From: Escherichia coli
GTDB lineage: Bacteria; Pseudomonadota; Gammaproteobacteria; Enterobacterales; Enterobacteriaceae
NCBI RefSeq assembly: GCF_003334765.1
Contig: NZ_QOWT01000001.1
Direction: 5' to 3' (one strand)
Length of the DNA stretch: 64,000 nt
The translations under genes and the position numbers were made by a program. Positions 51,973-56,883 of the stretch are shown piece by piece. The notes under the pieces are model-generated. The model did not search any database. It was not told the DNA's origin and worked only from the letters and a program-made list of their open reading frames with translations. The first letter of the stretch is position 1. Each line of letters begins with the position of its first letter.

Positions 51973-54396
51973 TTAAACCTTTTCGATCTGGACAAGATTG
52001 CTGTGCGACGGGTTTCCCTTTGCCAGCGGTGAAGGGCGGTGAGAGGTCAGAATATTGATACTGCCGCCGTGATCGACCCGGTCACCAAACATATCCGCTT
52101 TAAGCCACGCACCTTGCCCGATGGCGGTAACGCCAGGCAGAATACGCGGAGTCACTTTTGCGGCAATCAGCATTTCTCCATTATTGTTAAATACCCGCAC
52201 GGTATCGCCATGACGGATACCGCGTGCCTGAGCATCAATGGGGTTGATCCACACCTCTTGTGGGCAGGCCTGCTGTAACACATCAATATTGCCGTAGCTG
52301 GAGTGGGTACGCGCTTTGTAATGGAAGCCCGTTAACTGCAGTGGATAGGTTTTCCGCAGGGGATCGTCCCAGCCATCAAAACCTGGGGTATACGCAGGAA
52401 GGGGATGAATAATTTCATCTTTTTTCAATTCCCAGGTATCTGCAATCTTCGCCAGTCGTTCAGAATAAATTTCGATTTTCCCCGAAGGTGTTTTCAACGG
52501 GTTTGCCTGTGGATCTTCACGGAATGCGCGGAAAGCGACGTAGTGTTCTTCCGGGCATTTTTTCTTAAAGATCCCGGTCGTTTTCATCTCCTCGTAGTCG
52601 GGCATCTCAGGGTTACGTTCCTTCGTTTTCGCATGGAGATATTTGATCCATTCATGCTGACTGCGACCTTCAGTAAAGGTTTGATAAACGTCTGGTCCTA
52701 AGCGTTTGGCGACTTCACTCAGCATCCAGTAGATGGGTTTGCGTTCAAATTTTGCTGAGGTTGCGGGTTGGGCGAGGATCACATAGCCCATATTCCCTGC
52801 AGATTCATGAGAGATAAGGTCTTCTTGCTCTGTTGGCATCAGGTCGGGCAACAGGATATCGCAATACTTAGCCGAGGCCGTCATGAAGTGGTCAATGCCA
52901 ACAATCATCTCGCACTTGCTGTCATCCTGAAGCACCTCATGGGTGTGATTGATGTCGCCATGTTGATTGATCAATGTGTTACTGGCGTAGCACCATAAAA
53001 ACTTGATGGGGACATCCAGTTTTTCTTTTCCACGAACACCATCACGGGTCGCGGTCATTTCCGTACCATGGTCGATGGCATCTGTCCATGTAAAGACGGA
53101 AATCTGCGTTTTAACAGGATTCTCGAGCATCGGGAACCATTCTACCCCCAGATCCCAGCTACCTTCGCGTACGCCTGAGTTGCCGCCGTTTATGCCGACG
53201 TTGCCGGTGAGAACGGAAAGCATGGCAATAGCGCGGGATGTTTGCTCGCCGTTGGAATGTCGTTGTGGCCCCCAACCCTGACAAATATAAGCAGGTTTTG
53301 CTGAACCGATCTCTCGTGCCAACTGGATAATTTTTTCTGCCGGGATGCTGGTGATTTTTGCTGCCCATTCCGGCGTTTTAGCTATGCCGTCAGGCCCTTC
53401 GCCCAGAATATAGGCTTTATAATGCGCGTTACGTGGTGCGTTGGCGGGCAGCGTTTTTTCATCGTAACCAACACAATATTTGTCGAGAAATGGCTGATCG
53501 ACCATGTTTTCAGTAATCAGTACCCAGGCAATCGCACAGGCCAGTGCGCCATCGGTGCCAGGGCGAATGGGCAGCCATTCATCTTCACGCCCGGCAGCAG
53601 TGTCGTTATAACGTGGATCGATGACGATCATGCGTGCGTTTGAACGTTCGCGGGCTTGCTCGACGTAGTAAGTGACACCACCGCCGCTCATCCGCGTTTC
53701 TGCCGGGTTATTTCCGAACATAACGACCAGTTTCGTATTGGCGATATCATCCGGGCTGTTGCCATCATTGGCACCGAACATATAACTCATTGCGGCACTG
53801 ATCTGTGCGGTACTGTAGCTGCCATAGCGACTGAGAAAACCACCGCAAGAGTTCATCAGACGGTACGGGACGTTTGAGTTGGTGATGTTTCCGCCATCTA
53901 CGCCTGTTCCGTACAGGACATGTACAGCCTCATTGCCGTAATCTTTCAGGATCCGCCGAAGATTATCACTGATGGTATCCAGGGCTTCGTCCCAACTTAT
54001 CCGTTCAAATTTACCTTCACCGCGCTTGCCGACGCGCTTCATGGGATATTTCAACCTATCAGGATGATTCATCCGTCGGCGGATAGAGCGCCCGCGTAAA
54101 CACGCTCGAACCTGATGATTACCGTAGACGTCGTCACCTGTCGTATCAGACTCCACCCAGTACACGGTGTCATCTTTCACATGCAAACGTAACAGACAGC
54201 GGCTCCCGCAGTTAACGGTGCAGGAACTCCAGACCGCTTTCTCTTCTACCGGAGCCTCTGCCGCCCGGACCATTTGGGAAAATGGCAGAGTGAAAGCACT
54301 GCTTGCCAGCGCAAGACTGCCAAGTGCGGAGGTTTTCATCAGACTTCTACGGCTGATTTCAGCCTTCATGAGCGCCTCTGTGGTATGGATTTTCAT
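51973..54396 (-). CDS. ynfF: Tat-exported molybdopterin oxidoreductase catalytic subunit (DmsA paralog)
   Basis: about 807 aa; twin-arginine signal [18 protein letters not shown]; paralog of ynfE. Confidence 0.9.
   Translation of the reverse strand: [807 protein letters not shown]

Positions 54397-56883: not shown

Follow-up and report, generated by a model that had tools for sequence, protein, structure and literature searches.

Tandem paralogues at the ynf locus

The 64,000-nt stretch of Escherichia coli DNA analysed here (the window; contig NZ_QOWT01000001.1 of assembly GCF_003334765.1) carries ynfE and ynfF, two paralogous genes for catalytic subunits of molybdoenzymes that are predicted to be exported through twin-arginine translocation (Tat). 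The genes follow each other head to tail on the minus strand, each as an open reading frame (ORF) of 808 codons, with a repeat period of 2,484 nt (Table 1). A first-pass annotation of the DNA had named them and placed them at the head of the ynfEFGH–dmsD cluster. Both the names and the context proved right, on the strength of the RefSeq annotation, NCBIfam profile scores and 100% identity of the 4.9-kb ynfE–ynfF segment to the E. coli K-12 MG1655 and W3110 records. The same annotation rightly described both copies as intact and bearing twin-arginine signals: neither gene in the window has an internal stop, and in both proteins a motif of the form SRRxLxK (SRRTLVK in YnfE, SRRSLMK in YnfF) is followed by a hydrophobic stretch, giving predicted Tat signal peptides. 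Sequence related to the segment is present in 5,323 of 5,426 complete E. coli genomes, and 5,127 of the 5,426 hold at least 80% of it in one place.

Each protein matches its own curated family over its full length and stays below the cut-off of the other's. YnfE scores 1796 bits against NF041885 (selenate_YnfE; cut-off 1675) and only 1475 against the YnfF model, and YnfF scores 1775 bits against NF041884 (selenate_YnfF; cut-off 1650) and 1483 against the YnfE model. Both belong to the TIGR02166 dmsA_ynfE subfamily (1401 and 1286 bits, respectively; cut-off 778) and both miss the curated DmsA cut-off of 1600 (1343 and 1321 bits). Pfam, run on YnfE, places Molybdop_Fe4S4 (PF04879) at residues 49–108, Molybdopterin (PF00384) at 111–566 and Molydop_binding (PF01568) at 687–800; for YnfF the domains are covered by the full-length NCBIfam alignment. 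The residues of the C-x3-C-x3-C...C pattern are kept in both proteins when these are aligned, and the nearest solved structures are those of soluble dimethyl sulfoxide (DMSO) and trimethylamine N-oxide reductases.

Divergence of the two copies

At the protein level the copies share 567 of 801 residues (71%, with 85% positives; BLASTP), in keeping with the earlier description of two adjacent, highly similar genes on the same strand. Their DNA is 69.9% identical in a codon alignment (1679/2403), with 78%, 84% and 48% identity at first, second and third codon positions; blastn aligns positions 145–2420 at 71.1%, and megablast finds no match between the copies. These values lie right at the level of about 70% DNA identity that the first-pass annotation had named as the threshold for refuting recombination. 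The most diverged part is the signal-peptide region (51–60% identity over the first 225 nt), and the best 100-nt and 300-nt windows reach 83% and 76%. Non-synonymous divergence (dN) is 0.21 and synonymous divergence (dS) 1.45–2.04, which is saturated; dN/dS is 0.10–0.15. Because synonymous sites are saturated, the two genes should no longer act as recombining repeats.

Exact identity between the copies is correspondingly short. No shared run is longer than 17 nt when the same strand is compared, or than 11 nt between opposite strands. In 2,000 codon shuffles the longest run was 20.7 ± 3.7 nt, and 94% of shuffles reached or exceeded 17 nt, so that the lengths of identical runs give no trace of a recent conversion tract between ynfE and ynfF. 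Shen and Huang reportedly placed, in 1986, the minimal processing segment that RecA-dependent recombination needs in E. coli at roughly 23–27 bp; because 17 nt falls short of this, the pair should be a poor substrate for RecA-type recombination. The genes also have no k-mer of 18 nt or longer in common, which means that assemblers and 150-nt reads cannot confuse them; the suggestion that the copies create assembly ambiguity therefore fails.

The long peptide quoted by the first-pass annotation as common to both proteins is indeed found in each; 49 of its 51 residues are the same in the two. The underlying DNA is 82% identical (126 of 153 nt), and since most of its differences are at third codon positions, the block is apparently a case of protein conservation and not of DNA homogenisation.

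Natural ynfE–ynfF hybrid genes

We searched the 5,426 complete E. coli genomes with an in-silico query that joined the 5′ half of ynfE to the 3′ half of ynfF. In-register fusions of this kind occur in ten genomes and represent two independent alleles, which differ at 134 sites. Each fusion is a single 808-codon ORF between ynfD and ynfG, without a second copy. No report of natural ynfE/ynfF hybrids was found in the literature searched.

The first allele, hybrid A (protein WP_104457354.1), is carried by strains ECONIH4, 0H15 to 0H26 and CAVP776, and its exact protein occurs on 68 public contigs. Compared with the close relative AW1.7, it has no mismatches over the 1,271 nt of its ynfF part and two over the 1,039 nt of its ynfE part. 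It switches parent once, inside an 8-nt run, AACGGCGA, at about residue 384. The second, hybrid B (WP_256683566.1; strains JCC-EE 7 and FELIX_MS533), switches inside a 14-nt run, AACCCGGCAGAAAC, at about residue 233. Its background is near-K-12, and over 8.4 kb its locus matches the product of an in-silico deletion in the window at 99.95% identity. Against NCBIfam, hybrid A scores just under both curated cut-offs and hybrid B just over the YnfF cut-off, which accounts for the names that RefSeq gives them. Misassembly was considered as the origin of the hybrids and rejected, as assemblies of three unrelated origins (NIH, Alberta and Virginia) show the same junction and the protein recurs on those 68 contigs.

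No more in-register fusions came from hybrid queries joined at nt 459 and nt 1899. Most crossover positions are covered by the three queries taken together, and fusions within roughly 100–150 nt of the gene ends could be missed. The reciprocal hybrid, with a ynfF 5′ part and a ynfE 3′ part, gave no single-piece match, its top matches being artefacts of joined adjacent pieces. A hybrid query with 1.5-kb flanks matched 2,812 records at 80% or more through the joined two pieces of normal genomes; only single-piece matches are informative.

Because both junctions lie in microhomologies, of 8 and 14 nt, the fusions would fit rare short-homology deletion with survival of the in-frame products, and not ordinary homologous recombination. 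The proposal that the pair allows homologous recombination accordingly splits: it fails for the ordinary process, given the 17-nt run and the lack of a conversion tract, and survives, very rarely, as short-homology fusion. Microhomologies of at least 12 nt between ynfE and ynfF are all in register. At 8 nt, in-register and out-of-register matches are about equally numerous (166 versus 165), so two in-register events would on their own be statistically unremarkable.

Other disruptions of the locus

Insertion and loss are frequent at the ynfE/ynfF locus. In 546 of the 5,426 genomes (10.1%; for example, uk_P46212) ynfF is a pseudogene with two internal deletions, which in window terms span 53103–53682 (580 bp) and 52055–52328 (274 bp); microhomology is not evident at either deletion. 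The carriers have the appearance of what we take to be an ST131-like lineage. Insertion sequences (IS) have interrupted ynfE or ynfF many times independently; they include IS1A (in the laboratory strain TG1, among others), members of the IS3 family (IS3/IS1203) and of the IS5 family (IS5/ISKpn26/ISEc35), and IS150. Chromosomal ISEcp1–blaCTX-M-15 units interrupt one or the other gene as well, and some strains appear to have a prophage integrated in ynfE. In strains W60 and GPEC1405 at least, ynfE is cut near window position 55487; in W60 the cut is immediately followed by a gene for a site-specific integrase and by phage-like genes. Separately, in AW1.7, the closest relative of the hybrid A lineage with an intact ynfF, an IS5 truncates the 5′ end of ynfE beside a fragment of a FlxA-like gene, an independent disruption. 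In an independent pangenome study of 2026, both ynfE and ynfF rank with those metabolic genes of E. coli that are most often pseudogenes (PMC13322260).

Start regions and neighbouring genes

The sequence AGTGAGTAATG ahead of the ynfF start mirrors AGTGAGTTATG ahead of the ynfE start, and a short motif, AGTGAGT(T/A)ATG, is found at both start codons. This common start region suggests that the duplicated unit took in the ribosome-binding region. The ynfF ORF opens with ATGATG. RefSeq places its start at the second ATG (position 54396, giving 807 residues), as the first-pass annotation did. When the two motifs are aligned, it is the first ATG that lines up with the ynfE start, and the true start of ynfF could therefore be one codon earlier than RefSeq has it.

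RefSeq gives the gene order as ynfD, ynfE, ynfF, ynfG, ynfH, dmsD, so that ynfEF has beside it, as in an operon, genes for a DmsB-like iron–sulfur subunit, for an anchor like DmsC and for the chaperone DmsD. YnfH had no match to NCBIfam models at E ≤ 0.001, despite its RefSeq name of selenate reductase anchor subunit. Upstream of ynfE, an FNR-box-like palindrome, TTGATatggATTAA, would fit the predicted anaerobic induction of the operon (PMC5203670). A sigma-70 scan gave 6 sites against 8.8 expected, which is at or below background, and an Rfam scan of the whole window returned no matches. At the right end of the window, past rspB (about 62244–64000), lie Qin prophage remnants, first an integrase pseudogene and then part of an IS2 transposase gene, as mapped from the MG1655 annotation.

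Table 1. Features of the ynfE–ynfF region, in window coordinates (aa, amino acids)
Feature	Position	Strand	Basis or remark
ynfE (upstream copy), Tat-exported molybdopterin (bis-MGD) catalytic subunit, predicted	54457..56883	(-)	808 aa ORF; RefSeq annotation ynfE
ynfF (downstream copy), paralogous catalytic subunit	51973..54399	(-)	808-codon ORF
ynfE–ynfF spacer, 57 nt	54400..54456	(-)	read from sequence
YnfE twin-arginine motif SRRTLVK, aa 11–17	56833..56853	(-)	translation
YnfF twin-arginine motif SRRSLMK, aa 16–22 from first ATG	54334..54354	(-)	translation
Conserved peptide, ynfE copy, aa 89–139	56467..56619	(-)	49/51 aa, 126/153 nt identical to ynfF copy
Conserved peptide, ynfF copy, aa 93–143	53971..54123	(-)	counterpart of ynfE aa 89–139
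Hybrid A crossover, 8-nt AACGGCGA in ynfE	55730..55737	(-)	partner 53246–53253
Hybrid A partner site, 8-nt AACGGCGA in ynfF	53246..53253	(-)	partner 55730–55737
Hybrid B crossover, 14-nt AACCCGGCAGAAAC in ynfE	56180..56193	(-)	partner 53696–53709
Hybrid B partner site, 14-nt AACCCGGCAGAAAC in ynfF	53696..53709	(-)	partner 56180–56193
ynfG, four-cluster iron–sulfur electron-transfer subunit (DmsB paralogue)	51345..51962	(-)	TIGR02951 DMSO_dmsB 264.8 bits (cut-off 214); RefSeq
ynfH, membrane anchor / quinol oxidase subunit	50489..51343	(-)	RefSeq annotation only
dmsD, Tat proofreading chaperone	49832..50446	(-)	NF008632 347 bits (cut-off 162); RefSeq
FNR-box-like palindrome TTGATatggATTAA	56983..56996	(-)	1 mismatch to consensus; 100–113 nt upstream of ynfE start; pattern match only

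Origin and maintenance of the pair

We consider it highly probable that ynfE and ynfF stem from an ancient tandem duplication of the gene for a DmsABC-like catalytic subunit, that their products are alternative catalytic subunits (isoenzymes), and that the genes are no longer recombining repeats. This analysis itself supplied the anatomy, the divergence, the family assignments from profile scores and the variants in the population; for the enzyme activity, the reliance on DmsD and Tat and YnfF's minor role we draw on the literature. An E. coli mutant lacking ynfEF loses selenate reduction, and YnfE and YnfF are described as paralogous isoenzymes (PMC12724226). DmsA, YnfE and YnfF all have signal peptides to which DmsD binds (PMC5203670). 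The genes have also been implicated in tellurate reduction (Fujita 2021, as reported by a citing paper).

The age of the duplication can be judged from published identities. In Salmonella, YnfE and YnfF are likewise 71% identical (PMC5203670), and the one SrnA of Enterobacter cloacae shares 86% identity with YnfE of E. coli and 84% with that of Salmonella (PMC12724226). Because orthologues are thus much closer than paralogues, the duplication would be older than the genera of E. coli, Salmonella and Enterobacter, with the copies independent since then.

The duplicated gene would have encoded the catalytic subunit of a membrane-bound, periplasm-facing molybdoenzyme. Either YnfE or YnfF would be made with a twin-arginine signal peptide, to which the DmsD encoded in the operon would bind; each catalytic subunit would take up molybdenum bis-molybdopterin guanine dinucleotide (Mo-bisMGD) and an N-terminal [4Fe-4S] cluster and would then be exported, folded, through Tat. 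Both would work with a common YnfG, the iron–sulfur subunit, and a common YnfH, the menaquinol-oxidising anchor, in reducing selenate, tellurate and S- or N-oxides. Purifying selection would have acted on both copies since long before E. coli, Salmonella and Enterobacter diverged. The rare fusions would arise by short-homology deletion across the 2,484-nt period, whether through replication slippage, template switching or very inefficient recombination between the diverged copies.

Several points weigh against this interpretation. First, a strong long-term constraint on the two copies is hard to square with frequent pseudogenisation, as seen both in the pangenome study (PMC13322260) and in the 546 genomes whose ynfF carries deletions. 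Second, a distinct physiological role for YnfF is unsettled in the literature. Third, the sequence of the fusions fits more than one mechanism, as a heteroduplex across mismatches, once repaired, would leave the same sharp junction.

The most serious alternative is that ynfF is a redundant copy drifting to loss, so that the pair is in effect one functional gene and a spare. Salmonella YnfF contributes little to activity in selenate reduction (PMC5203670), E. cloacae manages with a single srnA (PMC12724226), a ynfF pseudogene is fixed in a tenth of the genomes, and both genes rank among those most often inactivated. We nevertheless regard this as unlikely: ynfF is intact in the window and passes the curated YnfF cut-off, and a dN/dS of 0.10–0.15 over saturated dS indicates that constraint acted on both lineages through most of their history. 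Moreover, because ynfE too is disrupted in many strains, by IS1, IS3, IS5 and prophage, decay is not specific to ynfF.

Much less probable is that the copies form a recombinogenic or assembly-ambiguous repeat, subject to ordinary homologous recombination (by unequal crossing-over or gene conversion) or to collapse by assemblers. What speaks for it is the existence of in-register fusions from two independent events, the spread of the hybrid A protein over public contigs, and a blastn identity of 71% across 2.3 kb. Against these stand the short longest run, the empty megablast result, the ceiling of 83% for any 100-nt window and the lack of a conversion tract, as well as junction identities of only 8 and 14 nt, the failure of the hybrid queries to find a reciprocal hybrid or further crossover points, and the rejection of misassembly. 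The fusions are also about 50 times rarer than the non-homologous ynfF deletions (10 versus 546 genomes, with clonal sampling inflating the count). As a general property of the pair, recombinogenic behaviour is effectively refuted. Finally, maintenance of the similarity by ongoing gene conversion (concerted evolution), which the long identical amino-acid stretches such as the 51-residue block might bring to mind, was rejected and seems highly implausible, given the third-position divergence under that block, identical runs no longer than chance, the absence of a conversion tract, a paralogue identity that is also 71% in Salmonella, and orthologues that are closer than paralogues (PMC5203670, PMC12724226).

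The population numbers describe the fate in nature of a 70%-identical tandem pair: no conversion, very rare microhomology fusions, and much commoner unrelated deletions and insertions of IS elements and prophages. The hybrid alleles offer ready-made material for working out how YnfE and YnfF differ in function. It is possible, although we lean against it, that hybrids A and B, with their YnfE N-terminal and YnfF C-terminal parts, are expressed and work as functional single-subunit selenate reductases. If so, tandem paralogues of 70% identity would collapse in register through microhomologies of 8–14 nt often enough to be sampled, and the hybrids would amount to a natural domain-swap experiment that maps the differences between YnfE and YnfF.

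Comparison with known systems

The gene pair itself is already known. The locus is the ynfEFGH–dmsD operon of E. coli K-12 (YnfE b1587, YnfF b1588; Lubitz and Weiner 2003, Guymer et al. 2009, Fujita et al. 2021), from which it shows no difference; it thus confirms a textbook operon and removes any worry over misassembly or repeat-driven instability.

DmsA of the E. coli DmsABC enzyme shares with YnfE and YnfF the TIGR02166 subfamily, a biogenesis that depends on Tat and DmsD, and a three-subunit architecture. YnfE and YnfF differ from it in falling under the DmsA cut-off and in their reported substrates, selenate and tellurate, and the catalytic gene is in tandem in ynf and not in dms.

For the hybrids, the closest parallel that we identified is that of the human CYP11B1/CYP11B2 unequal-crossover genes, in which an in-register fusion of a 5′ part of one copy to a 3′ part of the other likewise removes exactly one repeat unit. 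The human paralogues are far more alike and recombine by the ordinary process between non-allelic copies, whereas the ynf genes are 70% identical and their junctions span 8–14 nt.

SrnABCD of E. cloacae SLD1a-1 follows the same operon logic as ynf, with genes for a catalytic subunit, an iron–sulfur subunit, an anchor and a chaperone, and SrnA complements the E. coli ynfEF deletion (PMC12724226). It differs in having a single catalytic gene, without a ynfF-like copy, which is the architecture to which the E. coli hybrids have reverted.

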